A DNA stretch of 64,000 nt from the sequence record MT446392.1; one strand, written 5' to 3'. Under the pieces are notes generated by a model. The model ran no database searches, was not told where the DNA came from, and worked only from the letters and a program-made list of their open reading frames with translations. Shown here one piece after another: positions 3,189-63,664 of the stretch (the stretch's first letter is position 1; each line of letters starts with the position of its first letter). This stretch comes from Escherichia virus TH15. Made by a program: the position numbers and the translations under genes.

Positions 3189-3482
3189 CTATTTTATAAA
3201 GACTTTTGATGAGGCTTGAGCCACAGTATCACCACATGAAATCGGGTCTGCCATCTGGACGGCCTTTTTGCCTGTAACATACACCTTTGATGTTCTAGGT
3301 TGGGTTACTCCACCATGGGTTTCATATGGTTTTTTAATTTCTGTATGTTCGGTAATAGGGTCCCCGGCAACTAACACAGGAATTCCCCCTGTGAATACTT
3401 TACCTTGGGTTGCATTGATTACAGTCGGCGGCCATGCTTCGTGACCTGCTGTAACACATTGATTAAAACTTAATCCAGCCAT
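3189..3482 (-). CDS. 5.4: PAAR-repeat baseplate spike-tip protein gp5.4
   Basis: 97-aa ORF immediately upstream of gene 6, same size and position as T4 gp5.4. Confidence 0.6.
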
Positions 3483-4004
3483 TTAATCCCTCGCGTATAC
3501 GTATGAACGCAATTTATCTGCACATCGGCTCCAGTTACCGACGATAGTTTTTGTGTAAACTTTTGTCATTGTCTTTCTTACTGGGGCCGGAGGTGGGTCT
3601 GTCTCGTTGCCTGCCCGACTATTACTACCACCAGAGTTCCCTGTGTCTCCTCCAGAGCTCTCTTCTTGAAAGTCATAGGTTAGGGTTACTGTGTATGAAA
3701 AGACCTTCTGGAGGCTCGCTGGGGCCCTCCAGAGATACAATTGAGTGCTCTTATCCACAGGAAGTTCTTCCCATGAAGCAGCAGTTTTGAATTCATCATC
3801 AAGCCGATATTTAAGTGCATCATCTGCAAATCCGAACACGGATTCATAAACACCATAAAGATGATTGCCCTCAACATTAACGCCAGGGGTGGCCTCATAT
3901 TCAGTTATATTTATTTCGACTAATGTTTCGTTTGTTTCTAATTGAGCTGTAAACGTAACATCGATTGAGGCTCCTTCCATGGAGTCTCCTAGGTCAGTGC
4001 TCAT
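3483..4004 (-). CDS. 5.1: hypothetical protein, gp5.1-like by position
   Basis: ORF 3483..4064; start placed at internal Met 21 (4004) because the longer start overlaps gene 5; Ser/Gly/Pro-rich C-terminus. Confidence 0.4.
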   Translation of the reverse strand: MSTDLGDSMEGASIDVTFTAQLETNETLVEINITEYEATPGVNVEGNHLYGVYESVFGFADDALKYRLDDEFKTAASWEELPVDKSTQLYLWRAPASLQKVFSYTVTLTYDFQEESSGGDTGNSGGSNSRAGNETDPPPAPVRKTMTKVYTKTIVGNWSRCADKLRSYVYARD

Positions 4005-5757: not shown

Positions 5758-6386
5758 AGCGACTTCTCCATCTCACGAATAAGCGCCGAAATAAAAGATT
5801 CGATATCGTTAGGGTCGATTATCTTTATTTCTCGTTTGTATTCATTTTTGCGAATAGCATCTTCATAGATATCCACTGCGGCTAATGGACCTTCGTATTG
5901 TGGGTATAATTTGTTTTTATCGCCTTTATCGTACCAGGTGTATGGATTATCAGGATAAGAAACAAGGTTCCAGAATTTTTCACCATCTTCATTTACATGA
6001 TAAAGAACCTGATTGCCCCCGACATTCGAATATTTCTGAATTGATGCTTGATAAGATGCTTCTTGGGTACAAAGCCAACCATAATACGGGTCATAGATAT
6101 CATTGAGCATAAGGAGAACCCAATAGAGCTGAGTGTTGCCGTATAGCTGATATGCTAATTCTTCCGGGCGCGGAGCTCCGGCAATGTAATAGGTTTTTGG
6201 TGTATAATTGGCCGCGACTCTATCAAAGTAAGCACGATAATTTCTGAAGATGTCTGTCATTGGAATGCTTAAGACGTCTTCTTTCGTTAATGATGCCGAG
6301 TTTTTTCTGATTGTTTTAGCATCATAATCAATTGGGTTAAAAAATGAAAAAAGCATAAAGCCTCCATTTATAAATAAGTATATCAA
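5754..6386 (-). CDS. 53: baseplate wedge protein gp53
   Basis: 210-aa ORF upstream of gene 5 and divergent from gene 4, as in T4; true start may be the internal Met at 6356. Confidence 0.55.
   Translation of the reverse strand: MIYLFINGGFMLFSFFNPIDYDAKTIRKNSASLTKEDVLSIPMTDIFRNYRAYFDRVAANYTPKTYYIAGAPRPEELAYQLYGNTQLYWVLLMLNDIYDPYYGWLCTQEASYQASIQKYSNVGGNQVLYHVNEDGEKFWNLVSYPDNPYTWYDKGDKNKLYPQYEGPLAAVDIYEDAIRKNEYKREIKIIDPNDIESFISALIREMEKSL
6369..6376 (+). promoter_or_regulatory. putative late promoter TATAAATA upstream of gene 4
   Basis: Exact TATAAATA about 29 nt upstream of the gene 4 ATG, in the divergent 53/4 intergenic region. Confidence 0.4.
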
Positions 6387-6404: not shown

Positions 6405-6854
6405 ATGGCGTACTCCGGGAAATTTAAGCCCACTAATATAGAAAAATATAAGGGCGACTGGAAGAAAATACAATACAGGTCAAGTTGGGAGGCTTGGTTG
6501 ATGAGATGGCTTGACAACCATCCGAACGTTGTTCAATGGGGTTCTGAGACTGTTATCATCCCTTACTTTAGCAATGCTGATGGTAAAAAGCGCAGGTATT
6601 ATATGGATTTCTGGGTTAAGTTTGATACAGGACAACAGTTCTTTTTCGAAGTTAAGCCATTAAAAGAAACAAGGCCTCCAGCCAAACCGGTTAATAATAC
6701 CGCCGCGAGTAAAAAGAGATTTATTAACGAGATGTACACCTGGAGCGTTAACTCTGACAAATGGAAAGCTGCACAAGCTACCGCGGATAAGATGGGTATA
6801 ACGTTCAGGATAATCACTGAAAACTCACTGAAAAAATTAGGATGGAAAGGATGA
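6405..6854 (+). CDS. 4: head completion protein gp4
   Basis: 149 aa (T4 gp4 150 aa); conserved position and divergent orientation relative to gene 53. Confidence 0.7.
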
Positions 6855-7675
6855 GTATTTTTACATTTATCAATGAATCTGCAGATAAACCGGGTCCGAA
6901 ACCCAGTAAATCCGAACAACAATGGGTTGAGATAGGGGTTGAATTTTATACAGCAAAAGAAAAGGGAATGACCTCGAAGAAGTTTGCTGAAGAGAAGGGA
7001 ATCAACTATTCAACCTTTACCAAAAGCATGTCAAGATATCATTCGAGAATTCAGACTGCTTATAAAGTATCCAAACTCAAAAAGAAACCTGCTGGTAAAC
7101 TTACAAAGGCTGAACGCCAGCTGATAATGGTGAATAGCTTTAGGAAGAGCATAAGAGATAAAATTGCTAACGAAGGTGCTGCAAGCAACACCAAATCTGC
7201 CAGATGGTTCGCTGAGACAATTAAGAAAGCTGTCAGAGGGCACGTAACGGCTAAACCTCAACCAGGTAAGATTTATGCTTATATCTATGATGCAAAGCAT
7301 AAGGATACTCTTCCGTACTGGGACAAATATCCATTAATCATTTATCTTGGGTTAGGTAAGCACAATTTGATGTATGGTTTGAACTTGCACTATATTCCAC
7401 CGAAGGCACGTCAAGAGTTCCTTGAGGAACTTCTTAAGCAATATGCTAATACTCCTACGATTACGAACAAGACTCATCTGAAGATTGATTGGTCAAAGGT
7501 GAAGGGATTTAAAGGGGCTGACCAGATGATTAAAGCATATATACCTGGTAATATAAAAGGCACTATCACTGAAATCAAGCCCAGCGACTGGGCAAATGTG
7601 GTATTACTCCCCCTCCAACAATTTATGTCGAAAGGCAAAAGATTCTCTTCACAAAAAGTATGGAGAAATTCATAA
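6842..7675 (+). CDS. 2: DNA end protector protein gp2
   Basis: 277 aa (T4 gp2 274 aa); position between genes 4 and 3. Confidence 0.7.
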
Positions 7676-7760: not shown

Positions 7761-8360
7761 ATGTCAGGTTTATATAATCAAACTAACACGACTAACTTTA
7801 TATTAGAGGTAAGCGATTCAAACCTCACACAGACTTTTAAACTCAACGTTCAAGACGTTACCCTCCCAGGAGTTCACATCCCTGTTACAGATGTCCCGGG
7901 TGGAACACAAGGCATAAATCGCTCCAGTCTTCCTGGTAGTACAATAGAATTCGACCCGCTGATTGTTAACTTTCTGTGTGACAAAGACCTAAGGGCATGG
8001 CTTGATATCTATAAATGGATGCTCTCGCTTAACAACTACATCACACACGAATCAAAGGCATGGCATCCAAAGGGTCGTCCCGAAGCGGTCACGCTTCATA
8101 TCTTAGATAACAACAAGGACAAAATTGTCATGTCAATCCATTACTATGGAGCATGGCCGTCCGACCTGTCAGAGATTCAGTATTCATATAAAGAAGATTC
8201 TGACCCTGCTATCAACGCAACAGCAACTTTTAACTTTAAGTCTTTTGCTGTGGAAATTGATGGTATAATAATAGAAGGTAGACCACAGATTGATAGTAAT
8301 GCAGCAATGCAACAGGAAATCAGGTCTAAGTCAATGCATCCATCTATGAGAAACGTATGA
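7761..8360 (+). CDS. 3: tail completion / sheath stabiliser protein gp3
   Basis: ORF 7596..8360; start placed at Met 56 (MSGLYNQ..., 7761) after the end of gene 2; position as in T4. Confidence 0.6.
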   Translation: MSGLYNQTNTTNFILEVSDSNLTQTFKLNVQDVTLPGVHIPVTDVPGGTQGINRSSLPGSTIEFDPLIVNFLCDKDLRAWLDIYKWMLSLNNYITHESKAWHPKGRPEAVTLHILDNNKDKIVMSIHYYGAWPSDLSEIQYSYKEDSDPAINATATFNFKSFAVEIDGIIIEGRPQIDSNAAMQQEIRSKSMHPSMRNV

Positions 8361-9033
8361 AATTAATTGCGATTGTGGGTAAAAAACGCAGTGGTAAAGA
8401 TACGACTGCTGATTATGTTATTAGTCAAAACGGAACAAAGTGGCAACTTGCTGGTCCAATTAAAGAAGCGCTTTATAAAGCGTGGGTTCGTCAAGACCTG
8501 CCACACAATTTGACCCTGGAAAATTTTGATGGACAAGGTTATGACCGTGAAAAAACATTGATAATGAACAACACCGAAGCTCATATTCTTCTGGTTGATG
8601 CTCTTGAATGGTTAAAACAACAATATAATCTTGACCTTCCGAATCCAGATATGGTTCGTAAAATCATTGAATTTCACACACTAAATAATGTTGAGCCCTG
8701 GACAGTTAGACGTTTCATGCAGACCCTTGGAACTGACATCGTTTGTACAGAGTTCGACAGCATGTTTTGGATTAAAACTTTTGCATGCGATTATCTTGAC
8801 AACCTCTATTCTGGATATAAATATTACGTTGTCCCAGATGTTCGCCAAAAGAACGAACTTGATTCGCTTCGGGCGATGGGTGCTACAATAATCTTTGTAG
8901 AGCGCGATGAAGCAAATCATTCTACTGATACACACATTACGGAAGCTGGACTTCCACCACTAGCTAGTGACATTGTTATTAAAAACGATGGCACACTCGA
9001 AGAACTTTTTGATAAAATTAATAAGGTAATATA

Positions 9034-9034
<1 letters not shown>
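8357..9034 (+). CDS. 1: deoxynucleoside monophosphate kinase gp1
   Basis: 225 aa; N-terminal P-loop GKKRSGKDT; position between genes 3 and 57A as in T4. Confidence 0.8.
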
Positions 9035-9724
<690 letters not shown>

Positions 9725-9725
<1 letters not shown>

Positions 9726-9764
9726 TGTACAAATGAGTGTAGGTGCAGTATTATGTTCCTACAC
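9725..9764 (+). promoter_or_regulatory. early promoter cassette: -35 GTGTAC, -10 TATTAT bracketed by inverted repeat GTGTAGG/CCTACAC
   Basis: GTGTAC, 18-nt spacer, TATTAT; 7-bp inverted repeat flanks the -10; the ATG at 9753 lies inside the -10. Confidence 0.55.
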
Positions 9765-9785
9765 CAACGAACAAACGGAGTTAAA

Positions 9786-10118
9786 ATGAACATCAAGACT
9801 TATAACGAGTTTTTAGTCGAATCCGCCATCAATGAGACCAAATCAATTGATGATAGTGAAGGCTCTCTGAAATTTGGTTTATCCAAAAATGCAGATGGTG
9901 TTTTCTTTCAGATTGGTAATGAACGTTTTCAAACGTCCAAATATTCCAAAGCTGCAGTTGAAGCTGTCCTGAAATCTGGTGGCAAGTGGAAAGGCAAAGA
10001 AGGTACTAAAGAAATTGGTATCGCTGTTGACGGCGGTATGGCTTATTTCAAAATTGGTGATGAACAATTCATTATGTCTGCTCGCGGACGTAAAGAACTT
10101 GCAAAACTTTATAAATAA
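9786..10118 (+). CDS. internal-protein-like protein with capsid targeting sequence (MNIKTYNEFLVE)
   Basis: Start placed at Met 12 of ORF 9753..10118 (SD acggag); N-terminus matches the T4 IP capsid-targeting motif M-K-T-Y/F-x-E-F-x-x-E. Confidence 0.6.
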   Translation: MNIKTYNEFLVESAINETKSIDDSEGSLKFGLSKNADGVFFQIGNERFQTSKYSKAAVEAVLKSGGKWKGKEGTKEIGIAVDGGMAYFKIGDEQFIMSARGRKELAKLYK

Positions 10119-10126
10119 GGTTTCTT

Positions 10127-10399
10127 ATGAAAACTTTCAATGAATTTTTCAACGAGTCCCAACTGAATGAAGAAGTAAAAATTAGTAAATCAGTCAAAGC
10201 TATGATTGACAATATCAATCACCTGTATAGCATTGACTTAACTGACCATATAACAATTGGCAACAAACGCAACTTTTTCGCGTTTGACATTTCAGAACTT
10301 GACCAGAACCAAATTAATAACATTGAGCGTTTTGCCAATGATAAGGGTCTCCGCCACGAGACAGCTGGTTATAAAAAATATGCAATTTATCTAAAATAG
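10127..10399 (+). CDS. internal-protein-like protein with capsid targeting sequence (MKTFNEFFNE)
   Basis: 90 aa; CTS-type N-terminus. Confidence 0.6.
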   Translation: MKTFNEFFNESQLNEEVKISKSVKAMIDNINHLYSIDLTDHITIGNKRNFFAFDISELDQNQINNIERFANDKGLRHETAGYKKYAIYLK

Positions 10400-10407
10400 G
10401 ATTTCAA

Positions 10408-10707
10408 ATGCAAACTTTTCATGAATTTTTGGTAGAAAACAATTACCTGGCGGAAGCAAAAACCTGGCCTCTGGGCCTTCAGAAGAAAAACACCTACAAA
10501 TGGGTTGACTTCAAAGGCAAAGGCGACGCTGAAGACTTTGACCAGCTGCGTAAAAATGGTTATACCTTCCTTGACTCTAACTATAATAAAATTACCTCAT
10601 TTGGTCAGAAATCCAGCATCGCATATATTGAAACTGGTAAAAACACCCCTAAGAACATCACTGACGACTTCGCAGCTTATGGCGTGATTCGCGGTTCAAA
10701 AATGTAA
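10408..10707 (+). CDS. internal-protein-like protein with capsid targeting sequence (MQTFHEFLVE)
   Basis: 99 aa; CTS-type N-terminus. Confidence 0.6.
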   Translation: MQTFHEFLVENNYLAEAKTWPLGLQKKNTYKWVDFKGKGDAEDFDQLRKNGYTFLDSNYNKITSFGQKSSIAYIETGKNTPKNITDDFAAYGVIRGSKM

Positions 10708-10742
10708 TGTACATGATGGGATAACTGCAGTATAATTATCCC
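10707..10742 (+). promoter_or_regulatory. early promoter cassette: -35 ATGTAC, -10 TATAAT inside palindrome GGGATA...TATCCC
   Basis: -35-like hexamer, 18-nt spacer, TATAAT; GGGATA(n6)TATAAT-TATCCC palindrome; leader ATCAACTACTGGAG. Confidence 0.6.
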
Positions 10743-10762
10743 ATCAACTACTGGAGCTACTA

Positions 10763-11041
10763 ATGAAAACTTATCAAGAATTTATTAACGAATCAATTAG
10801 TCACCCGGATATGCTGGAAGACCTGAAAGGACATCTGATGGTTAAGGCCAAACCGGTTGATGGTGGCGCATTTGAGTTGTTTCTTGTTAAAGGCGAAAAC
10901 GGTCCTGATAACAAGAAAGTTTCAGCAATGATGTTGACTAAAGGTTACAAAGTCAGTTCTTCCTGGAATGCTCCATTCACTTACGCGGTAAGCCCTCGTG
11001 AACTGAAAAAAGTTAAAGCTGGACAATATACAAAAATTTAG
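10763..11041 (+). CDS. internal-protein-like protein with capsid targeting sequence (MKTYQEFINE)
   Basis: 92 aa; N-terminus matches the T4 IPI/IPII/IPIII targeting peptide. Confidence 0.65.
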   Translation: MKTYQEFINESISHPDMLEDLKGHLMVKAKPVDGGAFELFLVKGENGPDNKKVSAMMLTKGYKVSSSWNAPFTYAVSPRELKKVKAGQYTKI

Positions 11042-11076
11042 TGTACGTGATGGGATAGTTGCAGTATAATTATCCC
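11041..11076 (+). promoter_or_regulatory. early promoter cassette: -35 GTGTAC, -10 TATAAT inside palindrome GGGATA...TATCCC
   Basis: Near-identical copy (about 85 bp) of the cassette at 10707 including the first codons of the downstream gene. Confidence 0.6.
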
Positions 11077-11096
11077 ATCAACTACTGGAGCTACTA

Positions 11097-11351
11097 ATGA
11101 AAACTTATCAAGAATTTATTAACGAAGCCGCAGATGCAAAAGTTGAGTTTGCTTACGTTGGTTCCCCGCGCGGCAGTTTTTCTAATGAAGAATTCCGTCG
11201 TTCACTGGACAATTTCATGCAGTTAAGTGCTGAAGTATCGCATGATGGCCGTTATGACATCGTTACTATTAGCGGTTCTGAAGACCTTATCAAAAAGTGG
11301 TACAAGCAGAAAGATGTTGAGATGCGTTACTATCGTATCCCTAAAAAATAA
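11097..11351 (+). CDS. internal-protein-like protein with capsid targeting sequence (MKTYQEFINE)
   Basis: 84 aa; CTS-type N-terminus. Confidence 0.65.
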   Translation: MKTYQEFINEAADAKVEFAYVGSPRGSFSNEEFRRSLDNFMQLSAEVSHDGRYDIVTISGSEDLIKKWYKQKDVEMRYYRIPKK

Positions 11352-11386
11352 GTGTACATTTGAATGGGATAGCGTATAATTATCCC
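11352..11386 (+). promoter_or_regulatory. early promoter cassette: -35 GTGTAC, -10 TATAAT inside palindrome GGGATA...TATCCC
   Basis: GTGTAC, 17-nt spacer, TATAAT; palindrome; leader ATCAACTACTGAGGAG. Confidence 0.6.
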
Positions 11387-11408
11387 ATCAACTACTGAGG
11401 AGAATAAA

Positions 11409-11594
11409 ATGAAACGTTGCGAATTAATTAGAAATGTTACTGCCATTGTTGCTGTTACCGCTTTTGGTTTTAGCATGTTTGCTGGCTTTATGTTGAATAT
11501 GCTTTCAACTTCTGAGAATATAATCTCTTTAGTAGTGGCATTCTTAATTGGTTCAATCTCTTTTGTTATGGATAAAATCTCTAAAGGTGAGTAA
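11409..11594 (+). CDS. small hydrophobic protein (two predicted TM segments)
   Basis: 61-aa ORF behind a promoter cassette with SD. Confidence 0.45.
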   Translation: MKRCELIRNVTAIVAVTAFGFSMFAGFMLNMLSTSENIISLVVAFLIGSISFVMDKISKGE

Positions 11595-12533: not shown

Positions 12534-12607
12534 GGCCCTGTAGCTGGACGGTCAAGCGAGCGACTCATAATCGCTGGATGGTGGTTCGATTCCACCCAGG
12601 GCCACCA
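12534..12607 (+). tRNA. tRNA with anticodon CAU (Met, or Ile if lysidine-modified)
   Basis: Hand-folded cloverleaf: acceptor GGCCCTG/CAGGGCC, anticodon stem AGCGA/TCGCT with loop CTCATAA, T-arm GGTGG-TTCGATT-CCACC, encoded CCA. Confidence 0.7.
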
Positions 12608-12741: not shown

Positions 12742-12817
12742 CGAGGCATAGCTCAGAAGGAAGAGCAAGGACCTTCTAAGTCCTAGGTCGTAGGTTCGAT
12801 TCCTACTGTCTCGACCA
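12742..12817 (+). tRNA. tRNA-Arg (anticodon UCU)
   Basis: Hand-folded cloverleaf: acceptor CGAGGCA/TGTCTCG (one G-U), D-arm GCTC/GAGC with GG loop, anticodon loop CTTCTAA, T-arm GTAGG-TTCGATT-CCTAC, encoded CCA. Confidence 0.75.
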
Positions 12818-23007: not shown

Positions 23008-23424
23008 ATGACTCGCATTAATTTAACCCTGGTATCTGAACTTGCTGACCAACACCTTATGGCTGAATACCGCGAGCTTCCTCGCGTGTTTGGTGCTGTT
23101 CGTAAGCATGTGCAAAATGGTAAAAAGGTGTCTGACTTTAAAATCCCATCATCTTTTCTTTTAGGAACTGGTCATGTCACCTTCTTTTATGATAAGCTTT
23201 TGTTCCTTAAAAACCGTCATCAAGAACTTATTGCTGAATGTTTAAAGCGAGGGTTTAATATAAAAGATATTTCTACCCAAGATTTAAATGATATTCCTGA
23301 TGAATGGAAGAATGATTATCAACCATCAATCTGGTCAATTGAAATCAGTCAATCCAGACTGAATGAGAAAATTTCTCAAAAGCCTACCTGGTACAAATAC
23401 TATGGGAAAGCTGTGTACGCTTAA
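23008..23424 (+). CDS. denV: endonuclease V (pyrimidine dimer DNA glycosylase) DenV
   Basis: 138 aa; [34 protein letters not shown]... closely parallels T4 DenV, same length. Confidence 0.9.
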
Positions 23425-23442
23425 CTAAAAAGGTTGTATAAT
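23413..23442 (+). promoter_or_regulatory. early promoter cassette inside the 3' end of denV: -35 GTGTAC, -10 TATAAT
   Basis: 18-nt spacer; -10 overlaps the denV stop region; the ATG at 23434 lies inside the element. Confidence 0.45.
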
Positions 23443-23472: not shown

Positions 23473-23736
23473 ATGAAAACTTATCAAGAATTTATTACTG
23501 AATCTGCCAAAGCTCCTGCTGGTTCCTTTAAAGTCCGTGCCTTCGCTGGTGATGCTGAAGACTTTGGCTCACTGAAGCGCAACGGTTATTCTTTCTTTGG
23601 TGGTGATGGTAAAGAAATTGTTACCTATGCAAAACGTCGCGAAATCGCATTCGTGGTTGCTGGTAAGAAAGTATCCCCAGAAGATATTGAAGTTGACTTT
23701 GAGACCTTTGGTATTGTTTCTGGCGGTAAAGCTTAA
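23473..23736 (+). CDS. internal-protein-like protein with capsid targeting sequence (MKTYQEFITE)
   Basis: Start at Met 14 of ORF 23434..23736; CTS-type N-terminus; position matches T4 ipII/ipIII near denV. Confidence 0.6.
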   Translation: MKTYQEFITESAKAPAGSFKVRAFAGDAEDFGSLKRNGYSFFGGDGKEIVTYAKRREIAFVVAGKKVSPEDIEVDFETFGIVSGGKA

Positions 23737-23738
23737 CT

Positions 23739-23767
23739 GTTTACTTTATGATGGGATAGTGTATAAT
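23739..23767 (+). promoter_or_regulatory. early promoter cassette whose -10 overlaps the start codon of the next gene
   Basis: -35 GTTTAC, 17-nt spacer, GGGATA, TATAAT; the ATG at 23766 is formed by the last two bases of TATAAT plus G. Confidence 0.5.
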
Positions 23768-24065
23768 GTTAACTTATCAAGAATTTATCACAGAAGCCAA
23801 AGTTCCTAAAGCATTTCAAATTGGGGTTCAAGGCAATTTAGACCAACAATATGTTGATGCTATTGTAGCAAGCCTCGGTAAACAAGGGGTGCAAGTGGAT
23901 TTGGTTGATTTTACCAAAGGCAATACTTTTAATATTGTTACATCTAAAGGTTCTTTAGCTAAAGTTAAAAAGGCCTTTGGCGTAGCACAAGCATACGAAA
24001 TCGACCATTCTGAATTCGAAAATAAAGGTCGCCAGAACACAATTAAAGGCTCTGGTTCTTTTTAA
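23766..24065 (+). CDS. internal-protein-like protein with capsid targeting sequence (MLTYQEFITE); leader deleted
   Basis: 99 aa; CTS N-terminus with K2L change; no SD, ATG inside the upstream -10. Confidence 0.5.
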   Translation: MLTYQEFITEAKVPKAFQIGVQGNLDQQYVDAIVASLGKQGVQVDLVDFTKGNTFNIVTSKGSLAKVKKAFGVAQAYEIDHSEFENKGRQNTIKGSGSF

Positions 24066-24229
24066 TAAAGGCAAACCGACCCTCTCCTCATGAACGTCGT
24101 GTCCTCTGAGTGATGGACCTTTCCCTACCTGTAATAAGGTCGAGCCCGAGTGCGGTAAGGGGTTTACATTCGGATACATGGATGAATTAATGTGCCAAGG
24201 AATGGCCCCAAAACCTTAAGAGAAACAAT

Positions 24230-53589: not shown

Positions 53590-55113
53590 ATGCAAGAATT
53601 TTATTTAACTATCGAACAAATCGGTGACAACCTGCTCGAACGGTACATTGACAAGAATGGTCATGAACGTGTTCGTGAAATCCCTTATGCTCCATGCTTG
53701 TTTATGCATGCTCGCGAAGACCAGGCTGCAAAGTATACAGACATCTATAATAAAGGTTGTGTGAAAAAAGAATTCGATTCCATGCGTGATGCATCCCAGT
53801 GGATGAAGCGCATGAACGATATGGGCCTCGAAGCTATGGGTATGGACGATTTCAAACTCGCGTACCTGAGCGACCGTTACCCACATGAAATCAAATACGA
53901 TTCAAGTAAAATCCGTGTGGCTAACTTCGATATCGAGGTGACATCTCCTGATGGGTTCCCTGAGCCGTCTGAAGCACGTCACCCTATCGATGCCCTGACG
54001 CACTATGATTCGGTAGACGATAAATTCTATGTCTTTGACCTTTTGAGCTCGCCATACGCCACTGTGGAGCAATGGTCTATTGATATTGCTGCTAAGCTGC
54101 AGGAAGATGGCGGTGATGAAGTCCCCGAAGAAATCCTGGAAAAAATTGTTTATATGGCTTTCGATTCAGAAGAAGAAATGCTCCAGCAGTATTTGGTATT
54201 CTGGAACGAGAAAACTCCGGTTATGTTAACTGGTTGGAACATCGAGAAATTTGATATTCCGTATATCTACAACCGCATTAAAAATGTATTTGGTGAAGCT
54301 ACGGCCAAACGTCTGAGCCCACATCGTCGTACAAAAGTTAAAGTCATTAACAACGGCTTTGGTGAAGAACAAGAAATCATTCAGATTCTGGGTATCTCTG
54401 TTCTGGATTATCTGGACCTGTACAAAAAGTTCAGCTTCACAAACCAACCGTCTTACTCGTTGGACTATGTTGCGGAATCTGAGCTGGGTGTTGGTAAACT
54501 TCCGTATGATGGCCCGATTTCTAAATTACGTGAATCCAATCACCAGCGATACATCAGCTATAACATCATTGACGTTTATCGTGTTGTGCAGATTGACCGT
54601 AAGCGACAGTTCATTAACCTGAGCCAATCGATGGGTTATTATGCAAAGATGCAGATTCAGTCTGTATTCAGCCCAATCAAAACTTGGGATGCGATTATCT
54701 TTAACAGTCTGAAGACTCAAAACAAGGTTATCCCTGAAACCAAATCACATGTTCGTCAATCGTTCCCTGGTGCATTTGTTAAGGAACCGATTCCGAACGC
54801 ATACAAATATGTAATGAGCTGTGACTTAACATCTCTGTATCCGAGCATCATCCGACAGATTAACATCAGTCCAGAAACGATTGCCGGGTCATTTGCACCA
54901 GCCCAGATGCACGAATACATCGCAGGAACTGCTGACCGTCCATCTGATGCATTTAGTTGTGCGCCAAATGGTATGATGTATTTTAAAGATGTTGCGGGTA
55001 TTATTCCGACAGAAGTTGAGAAAGTTTTTAATCAACGAAAAACCGAAAAGAAAAAGATGTTGGCGGCACAACGTAATAGTGAATTGATTAAAGAAATTTT
55101 ACATGGAAAATAA
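53590..55113 (+). CDS. 43: DNA polymerase gp43, N-terminal segment (exonuclease and N-terminal domains)
   Basis: 507-aa ORF ending in a stop; contains B-family polymerase N-terminal and 3'-5' exonuclease regions (e.g. FDIEV); continues in ORF 55791..56966. Confidence 0.85.
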   Translation: MQEFYLTIEQIGDNLLERYIDKNGHERVREIPYAPCLFMHAREDQAAKYTDIYNKGCVKKEFDSMRDASQWMKRMNDMGLEAMGMDDFKLAYLSDRYPHEIKYDSSKIRVANFDIEVTSPDGFPEPSEARHPIDALTHYDSVDDKFYVFDLLSSPYATVEQWSIDIAAKLQEDGGDEVPEEILEKIVYMAFDSEEEMLQQYLVFWNEKTPVMLTGWNIEKFDIPYIYNRIKNVFGEATAKRLSPHRRTKVKVINNGFGEEQEIIQILGISVLDYLDLYKKFSFTNQPSYSLDYVAESELGVGKLPYDGPISKLRESNHQRYISYNIIDVYRVVQIDRKRQFINLSQSMGYYAKMQIQSVFSPIKTWDAIIFNSLKTQNKVIPETKSHVRQSFPGAFVKEPIPNAYKYVMSCDLTSLYPSIIRQINISPETIAGSFAPAQMHEYIAGTADRPSDAFSCAPNGMMYFKDVAGIIPTEVEKVFNQRKTEKKKMLAAQRNSELIKEILHGK

Positions 55114-55801
55114 ATTGCATTTTGTGTATAAAATTACAAATAACATTAATGGTAAAATTTACATCGGTGTTCACAGCACCGATGATATTAATGATGGATA
55201 TTTGGGCAAAGGTACTTTAATTCAGAAAGCTATTAAAAAATATGGGAAATCTAATTTTAAAAAGGAAATTTTGGAATTTTTCGAGGACCGCACTTCAGCC
55301 TTTGACAAAGAGCGAGAGCTTGTAACCAGAGAATTTGTCAGTTTGACAACAAACTATAATTTAAAAACTGGCGGCGAAGGTGGTGCAATGTATGGTAAAA
55401 CCAATCCGATGTATGGTCGAACATATAGGAAGTCGGAATCAGAGAAGACCCAAATTTCGTTGCGATTTAAAAATGTTCCCAAAACCAACCAGCACAAACA
55501 AAACCTATCCAATTCATTACTCGGTAAACCCAGACCGGACATCGCTGAGAGACAGCGCGGATTGTTACCCTGGAATGTTAATTCTATTCGCAATAACAAA
55601 ACCAGACTAAGAAAATTCGCCGACCTGGATATTATTTTCGATTATTGGTCTAGTCATAAATGTGGTGTTAAAGCATTAGCGAATTGGTATCAACTGGCGA
55701 CGTATAATGAATTAGCATCCGTTATGCGATTCATTAAAAAGTATGGTGACCCGCGACTGAATGGTGATTGGAAAAAATTTAAGGCTGACTATGAATATTG
55801 A
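55103..55801 (+). CDS. GIY-YIG homing endonuclease inserted within gene 43
   Basis: 232 aa; HFVYKITNNINGKIYIGVHS is a GIY-(10 aa)-YIG module; MYGKTNPMYGRT repeats; overlaps both polymerase ORFs by about 11 nt. Confidence 0.75.
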   Translation: MENKLHFVYKITNNINGKIYIGVHSTDDINDGYLGKGTLIQKAIKKYGKSNFKKEILEFFEDRTSAFDKERELVTREFVSLTTNYNLKTGGEGGAMYGKTNPMYGRTYRKSESEKTQISLRFKNVPKTNQHKQNLSNSLLGKPRPDIAERQRGLLPWNVNSIRNNKTRLRKFADLDIIFDYWSSHKCGVKALANWYQLATYNELASVMRFIKKYGDPRLNGDWKKFKADYEY

Positions 55802-56966
55802 TTATAATGCTGATTTTACAGAAGAACAAATCGAATACTTAAAAACTTTGTCTAAAGATGAATTGGAACACCATTTATACAATTCTCAAATGGCTGAAGT
55901 AGCTGCAAACACCGCGCAGATTAACCGTAAACTGCTTATCAATAGCTGTTATGGTGCTCTGGGCAATATCTGGTTCCGTTACTTTGACCTGCGAAATGCA
56001 ACTGCGATTACATCTTTCGGGCAACTTGCATTGCAGTGGATTGAGCGTAAAGTTAACGAATACTTCGATAGTGTTTGTGGTACAAGTGGTGAGACTTACG
56101 TATTCTATGGCGATACTGACTCCATTTATATCCAGTGCGATAACCTGATTAAAAAGGTTGGTGGTGAATCTAAATTCCGCGATACAAACCACCTGGTTGA
56201 CTTCATGGACAAGTTTGCAAAAGACCGTCTGGAACCGGCAATTGATAAAGCTTTCCGTGAACTGGCCGAATACATGAACAATAAACAGCACCTTATGTTT
56301 ATGGACCGTGAAGCGATTGCATGTCCTCCGCTGGGTTCTAAAGGCGTGGGTGGATTCTGGACGGCGAAGAAGCGTTATGCGTTGAACGTGTATGATATGG
56401 AAGGCACACGATATGCTGTTCCGAAACTGAAAATTATGGGTCTGGAAACTCAAAAGTCGAGCACTCCAAAAGCATGTCAGAAAGCTCTGAAAGAATGTAT
56501 CCGTCGCATGCTGCAAGAAGGTGAAGAATCTCTGCAGACATACTTCAAGGAATTCAATAAGGAATTTAATGAGCTTAACTACATGACCATCGCAGGTGTA
56601 TCATCGGTTAACAACATCCAGAAATATAATGAGGGCGGTTTCCCTGGATTTAAGTGCCCGGCTCATATCAAAGGTGTGCTTGCATATATGCGTGCAACTA
56701 AAGGGCTGAAGACTGTTCCGCAAATCATGGAAGGGGAAAAGGTGTATGTGCTTCCTCTTAAAGTTGGTAATCCGTTTGGCGAAACCGTGATTGCGTGGCC
56801 ATCAGGGATTGAACTCCCGATTGAAATTCGTGACCAAGTCTTGCAGTGGATGGACTACAACACACTGTTCCAGAAGACTTTTGTTAAGCCATTGACAGGG
56901 TTCTCTGAAGCAGCTAAGGTTGATTACGAGAAAAAAGCATCTCTTTTTGATATGTTTGATTTTTAA
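55791..56966 (+). CDS. 43: DNA polymerase gp43, C-terminal segment (palm/thumb, motif C YGDTDS)
   Basis: Start at Met 11 of ORF 55761..56966; INSCYGALGN and YGDTDSIY polymerase motifs. Confidence 0.85.
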   Translation: MNIDYNADFTEEQIEYLKTLSKDELEHHLYNSQMAEVAANTAQINRKLLINSCYGALGNIWFRYFDLRNATAITSFGQLALQWIERKVNEYFDSVCGTSGETYVFYGDTDSIYIQCDNLIKKVGGESKFRDTNHLVDFMDKFAKDRLEPAIDKAFRELAEYMNNKQHLMFMDREAIACPPLGSKGVGGFWTAKKRYALNVYDMEGTRYAVPKLKIMGLETQKSSTPKACQKALKECIRRMLQEGEESLQTYFKEFNKEFNELNYMTIAGVSSVNNIQKYNEGGFPGFKCPAHIKGVLAYMRATKGLKTVPQIMEGEKVYVLPLKVGNPFGETVIAWPSGIELPIEIRDQVLQWMDYNTLFQKTFVKPLTGFSEAAKVDYEKKASLFDMFDF

Positions 56967-57038: not shown

Positions 57039-57281
57039 ATGGAAACATTAATTGCGGGTACTGTTGTTCTTGGTGCTGGTTCTTTCTTCTTGGCTGCACT
57101 GACCTATTTTCTACCGTGGATTATCGCGCTACTGCGTGGAACCAAAAGTAATTGCGGAATCTTCTTTGTTAACCTTCTGTTAGGTTGGACAATGGTTGGG
57201 TGGTTTATTGCGTTTATTTGGGCACTCGTTGCTGAACGTAAATCAAACGCACAGTTAATTATCATCAAGGAAACCAAATGA
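57039..57281 (+). CDS. imm: superinfection immunity membrane protein Imm
   Basis: 80 aa with two TM helices, downstream of gene 43 as in T4. Confidence 0.6.
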   Translation: METLIAGTVVLGAGSFFLAALTYFLPWIIALLRGTKSNCGIFFVNLLLGWTMVGWFIAFIWALVAERKSNAQLIIIKETK

Positions 57282-57421
57282 AGATAATTACAATTATTGT
57301 ACTGATTGCATTTTTTAGTATGTCAATCTATTGGGCAATAATGACTCCGCATATGATTCCAACTTTAATTTTGGGTTGGATATTTTTGGGACTCCAAGCC
57401 CGTTATGAATGTTTTAATTGA
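57278..57421 (+). CDS. small hydrophobic peptide (47 aa, imm.1-like by position)
   Basis: Hand-translated MKIITIIVLIAFFSMSIYWAIM...; ATGA overlap with imm. Confidence 0.4.
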   Translation: MKIITIIVLIAFFSMSIYWAIMTPHMIPTLILGWIFLGLQARYECFN

Positions 57422-57431
57422 GGAAAATACA

Positions 57432-57935
57432 ATGAAAAAGTTAGCTATCGCAGCTGTTATGCTGCTATCTGGTTGTGCTTACCAGGGTGATGTAGTTAAT
57501 GTCAGTGAAATTGGTAAAGCGCGAATTGCTGCAGACCGTCAGGTGCATAATGGTTCCTTTGATTTCAAAGGTGGTACTGGGCTTATCTACAAACGCGACA
57601 ATAGTCAGTGTGGAAATAACTGCGCGAAATATGCTCAACAAGAAATTGAGTACAAACGCGAGCAAGCTGCGAAGCATGATGAAGTAATCGCTAAATTAGA
57701 AGCAGAAACTAAGCGACAAAATGACTTGGATACTGTTAACCAGATTTCACAGGTCTGCATGTCTTACATCAATATGCAGATAAACATCATGCGCGCGGAA
57801 GCTTATCAGGCAGCGGAGACTGGTTCTCCAAAAGCCAATGAGTATCGCGATATGTATCAGCGTTCTGCTCAAAATCGTCTGAGCTATATTAATAAATGTG
57901 TGGCTAAAGAGAAAGCCCGCCAAGGTATTAACTAA
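57432..57935 (+). CDS. lipoprotein (candidate superinfection-exclusion factor)
   Basis: Start at Met 10 of ORF 57405..57935; signal peptide plus lipobox LLSGC; occupies the interval where T4 has genes 42 and beta-gt. Confidence 0.5.
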   Translation: MKKLAIAAVMLLSGCAYQGDVVNVSEIGKARIAADRQVHNGSFDFKGGTGLIYKRDNSQCGNNCAKYAQQEIEYKREQAAKHDEVIAKLEAETKRQNDLDTVNQISQVCMSYINMQINIMRAEAYQAAETGSPKANEYRDMYQRSAQNRLSYINKCVAKEKARQGIN

Positions 57936-57942
57936 CATTAAT

Positions 57943-57969
57943 TGCTCTAAAAATACAGTGATATAATTA
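57943..57969 (+). promoter_or_regulatory. possible MotA-type middle promoter upstream of uvsX
   Basis: MotA-box-like TTGCTCTA, about 13 nt, then TATAAT (57964-57969). Confidence 0.3.
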
Positions 57970-58020
57970 TCCTATCTTAAACCTGTGAGAAAAATATAAT
58001 GGTGCCTATGGAAAAAATGA

Positions 58021-59199
58021 ATGTCTATTGCAGATTTGAAATCCCGTTTGATTAAAGCTTCTACATCCAAAATGACCGCGACTCTTACCAAGTCCAAGTT
58101 TTTTAATGATAAAGATGTAGTTCGTACAAAAATCCCGATGCTGAACATTGCAATCAGCGGTGCACTAGATGGTGGTATGCAGTCAGGTTTGACTATTTTT
58201 GCTGGTCCGTCAAAACACTTTAAATCCAATATGGGTTTAACGATGGTCTCTGCATATATGAACAAATACCCCGAAGCAATCTGTTTGTTCTATGATTCAG
58301 AATTTGGTATCACAGAAGCCTATCTGCGTGCAATGAAAGTAGACCCGGAACGTGTTATTCATACACCAATCCAGTCGGTTGAACAATTGAAAGTTGATAT
58401 GGTTAACCAGCTTGAAGCAATTGAGCGTGGTGAAAAAGTCATTATCTTTATTGACTCAATCGGTAACATGGCGTCGAAAAAAGAAACAGAAGATGCGATG
58501 AACGAAAAAGTCGTTGGTGATATGACTCGCGCTAAATCCCTGAAATCTCTGTTCCGTATTGTTACCCCATATTTTAGTATCAAGGATATTCCTTGTGTCG
58601 CGGTTAACCATACAATTGAGACGATTGAGATGTATAGCAAAACCGTTATGACCGGTGGTACAGGTGTTATGTATTCTGCGGACACCGTATTCATTATCGG
58701 CAAACGCCAGATTAAAGAAACCGGTAAAGAGCTTGAAGGTTTCCAATTTGTACTGAACGCCGAAAAATCTCGTATGGTCAAAGAGAAAAGTAAATTCTTC
58801 ATTGATGTAAAATTCGATGGTGGTATTGACCCGTATTCTGGCCTGCTTGATATGGCAATGGAAATTGGATTTGTGGTGAAGCCGAAAGTTGGTTGGTATA
58901 ACCGTGAATATCTTGATGTTGAGACCGGTGAAATGGTCCGCGAAGAAAAATCATGGCGAGCAAAAGATACTAACTGCACTGAATTCTGGGGCCCGCTGTT
59001 CAAGCACGAACCTTTCCGTGATGCAATCAAACGTCATTACCAACTGGGTGCAATCGATAGCAATGCTGTTGTTGATGCCGAAGTTGATGAGCTTATTAGT
59101 TCGAAAGTTGAAAAATACTCTGCACCAGAAGGCAAATCAAAACCATCTGCGGCAGACATCGAAAACGATTTAGATATGATGGAAGACCTTGATGAGTGA
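58021..59199 (+). CDS. uvsX: recombinase UvsX (RecA-like)
   Basis: 392 aa; ...LKSRLIKASTSKMTA...KIPMLNIAISGALDGGMQSGLTIFAGPSKHFKSN... closely parallels T4 UvsX. Confidence 0.9.
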   Translation: MSIADLKSRLIKASTSKMTATLTKSKFFNDKDVVRTKIPMLNIAISGALDGGMQSGLTIFAGPSKHFKSNMGLTMVSAYMNKYPEAICLFYDSEFGITEAYLRAMKVDPERVIHTPIQSVEQLKVDMVNQLEAIERGEKVIIFIDSIGNMASKKETEDAMNEKVVGDMTRAKSLKSLFRIVTPYFSIKDIPCVAVNHTIETIEMYSKTVMTGGTGVMYSADTVFIIGKRQIKETGKELEGFQFVLNAEKSRMVKEKSKFFIDVKFDGGIDPYSGLLDMAMEIGFVVKPKVGWYNREYLDVETGEMVREEKSWRAKDTNCTEFWGPLFKHEPFRDAIKRHYQLGAIDSNAVVDAEVDELISSKVEKYSAPEGKSKPSAADIENDLDMMEDLDE

Positions 59200-63279: not shown

Positions 63280-63445
63280 GATTTCGGTCTTCCAGATTTT
63301 TGAAGAATATGAAATCGTGTCGCAAGACCAAGAAGCAATCCATGTTATCGCTGATGATGGTGTTACCTGGATTATTCCATTGTATCATGAAGACACTTAT
63401 GAAGTGACTGATGCAAATGGTGATAAAGCTATCTTCGTTGTATAA
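63254..63445 (+). CDS. hypothetical small protein
   Basis: 63-aa ORF. Confidence 0.4.
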   Translation: MSAMCTGSKISVFQIFEEYEIVSQDQEAIHVIADDGVTWIIPLYHEDTYEVTDANGDKAIFVV

Positions 63446-63447
63446 AT
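63440..63447 (+). promoter_or_regulatory. putative late promoter TATAAATA
   Basis: Exact TATAAATA about 17 nt upstream of the ATG at 63464. Confidence 0.4.
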
Positions 63448-63463
63448 AGCGGAAAGGGGGTGT

Positions 63464-63631
63464 TATGAAAACATTCAAAGATTTTATAAACGAAGATATG
63501 GTTGCAGGTGATGCAGGTGGAAACCCAACTAATATCGCAACAGGTACCACTTCCGGGGCAGTTGTCAATAAAGGCCCTGAACAAATCCCATCAAAAAAGC
63601 GTAAGAATAAAGACGATAAACCTACAGTATA
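63464..63631 (+). CDS. small protein with capsid-targeting-type N-terminus (MKTFKDFINE; 55 aa, below the ORF-track cutoff)
   Basis: Hand-translated MKTFKDFINEDMVAGDAGGNPTNIATGTTSGAVVNKGPEQIPSKKRKNKDDKPTV; SD aaaggggg; preceded by a late-promoter motif. Confidence 0.45.
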
Positions 63632-63664
63632 ATGGTCCTTCGGGGCCATTGAAATGAGGAAACT

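Follow-up and report, generated by a model that had tools for sequence, protein, structure and literature searches.

Five internal-protein-like genes with capsid-targeting leaders at the ipI position of a VR7/SP18-type Escherichia phage

The internal proteins (IPs) of bacteriophage T4 are the closest described counterparts of the products of five consecutive small genes found at positions 9786-11351 of a 64,000-nucleotide stretch of Escherichia virus TH15 (sequence record MT446392.1), which is referred to here as the window. According to a review of Black's work, the first ten residues of T4 IPIII, its capsid targeting sequence (CTS), are enough for packaging, the CTS is likewise enough for processing, and foreign proteins can be packaged in T4 by means of these ten residues alone. 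Mutagenesis of the IPIII CTS, covered in the same review, gives residues 4 and 7 the greatest weight in targeting and residues 8 and 10 control over processing, an aspartate at position 10 stopping cleavage. The internal proteins of T-even phages are diverse, the CTS alone being conserved, and polymorphism of the ip loci, with a shared leader and upstream segment, is credited to Repoila et al. 1994 in the later papers through which we cite that study (PMC3012670, PMC12373910, PMC4122927). T4 Ip1, Ip2 and Ip3 are subtype-specific inhibitors, each acting on a different GmrSD type IV enzyme (Bair et al. 2007; Silas et al. 2025, PMC12373910), and GmrSD inhibition has been proposed for every protein encoded at the two Ip loci (Silas et al. 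2025). A further point of comparison is provided by mobile regulatory cassettes in which an early promoter sits inside a stem-loop (promoter-early stem-loop, PeSL), described in T4-type phages (Arbiol et al. 2010, PMC2839356; Comeau et al. 2014, PMC4122927).

The five open reading frames (ORFs), here named ipA to ipE, lie in tandem on the + strand: ipA (9786-10118, 110 amino acids, leader MNIKTYNEFLVE), ipB (10127-10399, 90 amino acids, MKTFNEFFNE), ipC (10408-10707, 99 amino acids, MQTFHEFLVE), ipD (10763-11041, 92 amino acids, MKTYQEFINE) and ipE (11097-11351, 84 amino acids, also MKTYQEFINE). A mechanical ORF list starts ipA at 9753; two points favour the ATG at 9786 as the likely start, a GGAG placed 5 nt ahead of it and the MKTY opening of homologues in other phages. 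The motif [KQL]T[FY].[ED]F[FLI].E, searched in the six-frame translation of the window, gave eight matches, every one on the + strand and immediately after an initiator methionine, and none in 200 shuffles of the window; the leader pattern is real and far above chance. All eight leaders have an aromatic residue at position 4, Phe at 7, a hydrophobic residue at 8 and Glu at 10, so that the critical residues of the T4 CTS are present in the five block ORFs and in three others, and they are identical to the MKTYQEFIAE start of T4 IPII and IPIII at up to 9 of 10 residues. The sequence-only reading that singled out this block had listed five consecutive ORFs with such N-termini and had likened them to the T4 capsid targeting sequence; both statements are borne out, the second by the retained residues and by the genomic position of the block.

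The window belongs to a Gaprivervirus, one of the VR7/SP18-like T4-type myoviruses of E. coli and Shigella, and the region is 94-97% identical to other members (VR7, VR20, SP18, UPEC01 and others), with 97% identity to VR7 across the locus of the ip block. The block is preceded by gp1 (8357-9034), 57A (9034-9270) and 57B/Acb1 (9270-9725) and followed by tRNA.4 (11409-11594) and then tRNA.3, an order that matches 1, 57A, 57B, ipI, trna.4, trna.3 in T4. The block thus stands in place of the single T4 gene ipI, with five genes where T4 has one. A second pair of leader-bearing genes (at 23473 and 23766) comes after e and denV, the position of T4 ipII/ipIII, and the ip genes of the window accordingly fall into the same two loci as those of T4, between 57B and trna.4 and between e/denV and the vs.8 region. 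The head genes gp20, gp67, gp68, gp21, gp22 and gp23 lie outside the window and are carried by VR7, through which the gp21 prohead protease and the gp22/gp67/gp68 core can be attributed to the lineage, as in T4.

As in the T4 IPs, the predicted processed proteins are small and mostly basic (74-98 amino acids, 8-11 kDa, isoelectric point (pI) 8-9.6, ipB excepted). The block departs from the T4 pattern in a two-residue N-terminal extension in ipA and in a second candidate cleavage site of the form L/I-x-E in three of the proteins, lying 5-6 residues further in: INE ending at residue 17 of ipA, LNE at residues 13-15 of ipB and LAE at residues 14-16 of ipC. Because of these second sites, a cut after Glu 10 is not certain for ipA, ipB and ipC; T4 IPI itself is cleaved after residue 19, to judge from the solved IPI* chain (2JUB, residues 20-95).

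Beyond the leader, the five proteins were said in the sequence-only reading to be unrelated to one another, and within the block this holds. No match between block members was found by blastp after the leader, and in profile-profile comparison of the mature regions (hhalign) every pair, T4 IPI*, IPII* and IPIII* included, stayed below 4% probability. The exception lies outside the block: ipC and the gene at 23473 are clear paralogues (blastp 5e-16; hhalign 98%). Unlike the leaders, the mature parts have no sequence or profile similarity to IPI, IPII or IPIII, for which hhalign gave less than 1% and blastp matches were limited to the first 10-17 residues; none of the five matches 2JUB (IPI*) by sequence. 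The suggestion that the mature sequences be compared with known anti-restriction proteins thus led, for T4 IPI, IPII and IPIII, to no homology. Pfam and NCBIfam scans of all candidates gave nothing above noise, and no model of either collection covers any of them.

Near-identical relatives account for much of the naming. ipB is 98% identical to VR7 Ip9 and falls in PHROG 7673 'internal head protein' (2e-56); ipC is 99% identical to VR7 gp154 and falls in PHROG 2667, with the same label; ipE shares 95-96% identity with the fifth gene in UPEC01 and in EAWsc9 and is a distant relative of Ip6 (45% identity to VR7/T6-type Ip6, E 1e-16; PHROG 8111 'internal virion protein'). ipA (99% identity to VR7 gp156, PHROG 3966) and ipD (100% identity to VR7 gp153, PHROG 15565) are the members without an Ip name in the records examined, being labelled 'hypothetical' only and placed in families annotated as of unknown function. 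The polymorphic T-even loci, as portrayed in the citing papers, are matched here in that ip genes vary in how many there are, which they are and how they are ordered, with only a leader and a conserved upstream segment in common; the named families Ip5, Ip6, Ip7, Ip9 and Ip10, all found in the annotations of relatives, recur in the window or its sister phages. The families differ in breadth: that of ipA comprises 11 clusters, including Edwardsiella phage PEi20 and Salmonella phage STP4-a, and that of ipC six, and ipD forms a lone 90%-identity cluster among 5.8 billion proteins. Two further labels in the EAWsc9 record, 'profilin' for the ipA ortholog (2591-2923) and 'homing endonuclease' for the ipC ortholog (3213-3512), are supported by no search and are treated as spurious.

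The genes of the block are set among recurrent upstream elements, for which the evidence consists of consensus matches and predicted folds. The element upstream of ipA (9725-9766, + strand) reads GTGTAC, 18 nt, TATTAT, with a stem GUGUAGG/CCUACAC around the -10 box and a predicted fold of -14.8 kcal/mol (z -2.0). Those of ipD and ipE lie in two copies of a 96-nt direct repeat on the + strand that are 95% identical and each begin at the preceding stop codon. Copy 1 (10697-10792) runs from the stop codon through a PeSL (at 10708; TGTACA-17-TATAAT, stem GAUGGGAUAA/UUAUCCCAUC) and a Shine-Dalgarno sequence GGAG into the first 30 nt of CTS-coding DNA of ipD; copy 2 (11031-11126) likewise holds a PeSL (at 11041; predicted fold -20.7 kcal/mol, z -4.0), a Shine-Dalgarno sequence and the CTS-coding start of ipE. 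A final PeSL (11352-11395, + strand) ends the array upstream of tRNA.4, its 3' half near-identical to the region upstream of T4 trna.4. In all four the layout is a stop codon, GTGTAC or TGTACA, 16-18 nt, TATAAT, ATCAAC, a Shine-Dalgarno sequence and ATG, the hairpin loop holding the -10 box. The stem sequence of ipA is not that of the ipD/ipE pair, with the architecture preserved. About ten such elements were counted on the + strand of the window and none on the - strand, against 0.3 in shuffles; six are at the two ip loci. These are elements with a sigma-70-type early promoter whose -10 box lies in a stem-loop, as in the published PeSLs; weaker examples are the element upstream of the second ip locus (23413-23442, + strand; GTGTAC-18-TATAAT, weak stem) and another at 23739. 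T4 ipI, ipII, ipIII and trna.4 share the upstream promoter-in-hairpin layout. The sequences themselves (GTGTAC/TGTACA-17-TATAAT and the GGGATA/TATCCC stem) differ from the published RB49- and T4-type sequences.

ipB and ipC trail ipA with 8-nt gaps and without a PeSL. Overlapping the stop codon of ipA is TATAAATA (10110-10117, + strand), an exact copy of the T4 late-promoter motif, with 9 nt between its end and the ATG of ipB; among the ip genes and gene 61.1, only ipB and 61.1 have an exact motif upstream. Over the window the motif occurs at 6369, 8816, 10110, 13161, 29029 and 63441, on the + strand at all six sites, with a total not above chance.

Comparison of the ip locus across ten phages that are 94-97% identical revealed how these elements relate to gene content. 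Each phage holds 3-6 genes from six families, of which ipA and ipB are present in all ten; the ipC, ipD, Ip5-like and ipE/Ip6 families are variable. In all nine pairwise comparisons the breakpoints fall inside a PeSL or the adjoining CTS-coding DNA, in agreement with the location of published PeSLs at the borders of variable genes and in hyperplastic regions, with breakpoints of gene gain and loss within the elements. what TH54 is without is precisely the 334-bp ipD unit, which recombination between copy 1 and copy 2 of the 96-nt repeat removes; SP18 is without ipE between two PeSLs; EAWsc9 and ECML-359 have Ip5 where ipD stands in the window; TH44 has Ip5 inserted at the ipC-ipD junction; and in UPEC07 the breakpoint is 14 nt inside the ipC leader. 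In VR7 and VR25 the sole departure from the window lies in the part of the fifth gene that codes for the mature protein (11144-11337). The second locus of VR7 carries an ip10 insertion ahead of its counterpart of the 23473 gene, with the breakpoint at a 33-nt CTS-coding repeat. The repeat of the window thus differs from published PeSL cassettes in that it reaches into the coding leader, so that CTS-coding DNA recombines too.

Such an arrangement raises the question of whether the common N-terminus might be no more than a by-product of a mobile DNA cassette, the proteins being early cytoplasmic accessories that are never packaged. That the leader DNA belongs to the 96-nt repeat serving as recombination substrate, and that early-type promoters stand ahead of most of the genes, would agree with this view. 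The leaders of ipA, ipB and ipC speak against it: their DNA is identical to the other leaders at just 16-21 of 27 nt, and they keep the four residues for targeting and cleavage. Because this diverged DNA retains the critical residues, the peptide appears to be under selection beyond the copying of a DNA repeat, and the comparison argues for selection acting on the leader peptide itself. Also at odds with a by-product are the retention of the leader in ipB and ipC, which have no PeSL upstream, the MKTY-EF-TE start kept by ipA homologues in Edwardsiella and Salmonella phages, and the ability of the ten-residue leader to package foreign proteins in T4 (review of Black's work). We regard this explanation as very improbable.

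Instead, we consider it highly probable that the block is the ipI-locus Ip array of a VR7/SP18-type phage, built from cassettes and encoding CTS-tagged proteins that would be packaged and injected. By analogy with T4 IPIII, the leader of about ten residues would bind the scaffolding core of the prohead; the gp21 prohead protease would then cut behind the glutamate of L/I-x-E, and the freed protein would remain in the head with the DNA, to be injected at the next infection and to act ahead of any phage gene expression. The likeliest role would be to neutralise a host defence that attacks the incoming DNA. Each cassette would consist of a PeSL, a ribosome-binding site and 30 nt of CTS-coding DNA, and homologous recombination at the repeats would add, delete or swap whole genes or the mature-coding body alone; recombination of this kind would therefore explain why close relatives hold 3 to 6 genes at the locus. 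The view of the sequence-only reading that this is a diversified set of CTS-tagged internal-protein genes is supported by these data and by the literature, with co-injection, as it was also proposed there, a likely consequence by analogy.

A variant compatible with the injected-array explanation, and not opposed to it, assigns the proteins a dual role, in which injection from the parental virion would be joined by early synthesis from the PeSL promoters, with much of the effect owed to the newly made protein. The predicted sigma-70-type early promoters immediately ahead of ipA, ipD, ipE and the gene at 23473 are consistent with this idea, as is the finding that wild-type T4 needed additional, plasmid-borne Ip2 against one GmrSD (Silas et al. 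2025, PMC12373910). We give it somewhat less than an even chance.

A different account would make the packaged proteins mainly generic DNA-associated or head-assembly components, concerned with charge neutralisation, condensation or core assembly, and not inhibitors of defence. In its favour are the mostly basic character of the mature parts (pI 8-9.6) and, from the review of Black's work, the binding of DNA by T4 IPs at low salt and the head-assembly defects of IPIII/IP0 mutants. The predicted fold of ipA may be added to these points. The AlphaFold2 model of ipA (pLDDT, the predicted local distance difference test, 75; pTM, the predicted template modelling score, 0.62) contains a beta-beta-beta-beta-alpha unit twice in tandem, and the alignment of the family shows an internal sequence repeat; both the tandem units and a structural similarity to several members of the Whirly/PUR-alpha/MRP1-MRP2 group were found. 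The prediction for ipA is accordingly a fold of the Whirly/PUR-like kind, which is characteristic of proteins that bind nucleic acids, and from the fold class ipA may bind single-stranded nucleic acid. A generic structural role nevertheless fits poorly with genes that are gained and lost among phages 94-97% identical, with mature sequences that are mutually unrelated, and with the identification of all three T4 IPs as specific GmrSD inhibitors (PMC12373910). It therefore seems to us an unlikely account of the array.

If the proteins of the array are injected inhibitors, the class of their targets depends on the chemistry of the DNA that they would accompany. Searches of the window and of about 125 of the 169 kb of VR7 (record NC_014792), parts of the VR7 structural-gene region being unsearched, gave no homologue of T4 gp42 or beta-glucosyltransferase; in the window, the interval from uvsX to imm (57039-59199) holds a homologue of neither, and the VR7 annotation is without gp42, beta-gt and alpha-gt at the T4 positions. 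VR7 retains gp56, Alc, DenA and DenB. Gordeeva et al. reported that VR7 DNA has modified but unglycosylated cytosines and that BREX blocks VR7 completely. No pathway for the cytosine modification is evident in the lineage, and a 2026 paper on 5-hydroxycytosine does not cover the phage group of the window.

Compared with the GmrSD inhibitors Ip1, Ip2 and Ip3 (PMC12373910), the window proteins are alike in being leader-tagged, mutually unrelated and small, in occupying the same two hotspots, and probably in being injected. They differ in having no homology to those proteins in the mature part and in belonging to a lineage apparently without glucosyl-hydroxymethylcytosine (glucosyl-hmC) DNA, so that neither of these two traits of IPI*-type inhibitors is found here. 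The parallel drawn in the sequence-only reading with IPI* and type IV restriction is thus sustained by leader and location, and calls for caution given the lack of mature homology and, in the regions searched, of gp42 and beta-glucosyltransferase homologues. Our best guess, by analogy, is that the array would inhibit defences that see the lineage's own DNA. The more specific proposition that it targets defences not directed at glucosyl-hmC, with at least one member, ipA, binding nucleic acid through its Whirly/PUR-like fold (for example by shielding the DNA as it enters) and not a nuclease, is offered tentatively, and we think it doubtful.

Several observations weigh against the reading of the block as an array of injected defence inhibitors. 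Since VR7 is fully blocked by BREX, the VR7 Ips do not cover that system; and given unglycosylated DNA and no gp42 or beta-glucosyltransferase homologue in the regions searched, GmrSD enzymes acting on glucosyl-hmC may not be relevant to this lineage. Because none of the five proteins resembles IPI, IPII or IPIII, no function or target of a T4 IP is transferable to them, and a search of solved structures by sequence gave no match for any of the five. Apart from ipB, the ip genes have early-type promoters only, and their supply at head assembly has to be assumed to come from read-through or long-lived protein. ipB deviates slightly from the leader pattern (Phe, not Ile or Leu, at position 8), and its mature part is near-neutral (pI 6.8). 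A literature search for virion proteomics or N-terminal data on the Ips of VR7-type phages found none.

The leader-bearing genes outside the block extend the picture in two directions. The sequence-only reading had placed them at 23473, 23766 and 63464 and had counted at least eight such ORFs; all three are real, with the third starting at 63465, and the eight motif matches bear out the number. The pair at the second locus comprises an ip gene at 23473-23736 (+ strand, 87 amino acids, MKTYQEFITE), which matches VR7 ORF127c 'internal head protein', and Ip7 of the T2 Ip7 family at 23766-24065 (+ strand, 99 amino acids, MLTYQEFITE). The ATG of Ip7 and the -10 box of a truncated PeSL (23739-23767, GTTTAC-17-TATAAT) overlap; Ip7 opens with MLTYQEF in place of MKTYQEF, no clear Shine-Dalgarno sequence precedes it, and the arrangement, being identical in VR7, is conserved. 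Its appearance suggests an old deletion by which the hairpin loop became joined to the leader. The stretch after Ip7 (24066-24180) is intergenic, G+C-rich and structured-looking, and a gathering-threshold Rfam scan assigned it to no family.

The ORF at 63465-63632 (+ strand, 55 amino acids) is the ortholog of gene 61.1, with 100% identity to VR7 61.1 and 75% to T4 61.1. It opens MKTFKDFINE and continues MVAGD...KKRK, with TATAAATA at 63441-63448 upstream; T4 gp61.1 opens MKTFKEFIKE. Since more than 1,400 T4-like phage records contain gene 61.1, it counts as conserved and does not belong with the variable cassettes, which corrects its grouping with the block in the sequence-only reading. In short members of the family the CTS-like leader lies directly ahead of a conserved MVAGDSGG...KKKK peptide, and in long members (140-165 amino acids, such as 61.1 of Aeromonas phage Aeh1) the same peptide is C-terminal, after L/I/V-x-E. 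That the CTS route might also deliver a conserved cargo, the gene 61.1 peptide, is a related proposition that we likewise think doubtful. gp61.1 is absent from a published table of T4 head components. That the long form might be the core protein gp68 was considered and rejected, direct comparison with T4 gp67, gp68 and gp22 showing no relation. A look-alike is seen in gp2 (6851-7675), the head-internal protector of DNA ends, which starts MSIFTFINE|S where T4 gp2 starts MAIFQIINE|S; its conserved signature F-x-[FI]-I-N-E-S resembles the end of the CTS and a gp21 cleavage site.

Two further observations concern other regions of the window. Downstream of tRNA.3 are two tRNA genes (12534-12604 and 12742-12814); two tRNAs were all that an Rfam scan of the window gave, and the tRNA set at that position varies among sister phages (one in VR7, three in SP18, two in EAWsc9). 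Gene 43, for DNA polymerase, appears as two ORFs, 53590-55113 (507 amino acids) and 55761-56966 (401 amino acids), with a 232-amino-acid ORF between the parts (55103-55801) whose N-terminus resembles a GIY-YIG homing endonuclease; gene 43 of VR7 is intact at 2715 nt.

Knowledge of the phenomenon described here goes back to 1994; it is textbook matter for phages of the T4 type, and GenBank records of near-identical phages already carry part of the annotation. What the present analysis adds is modest: the recognition of the previously unlabelled ipA and ipD, a fold prediction for ipA, the exact breakpoints, and caution over the target class. Together with the pair at the second locus, the array represents seven candidate injected effectors, two of them never so labelled, from a group whose DNA chemistry is unlike that of T4, and the published proposal that GmrSD-type enzymes are the targets of every Ip-locus protein can be fairly tested on it. 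Its clean breakpoints provide a worked example of a coding leader that doubles as a recombination site.

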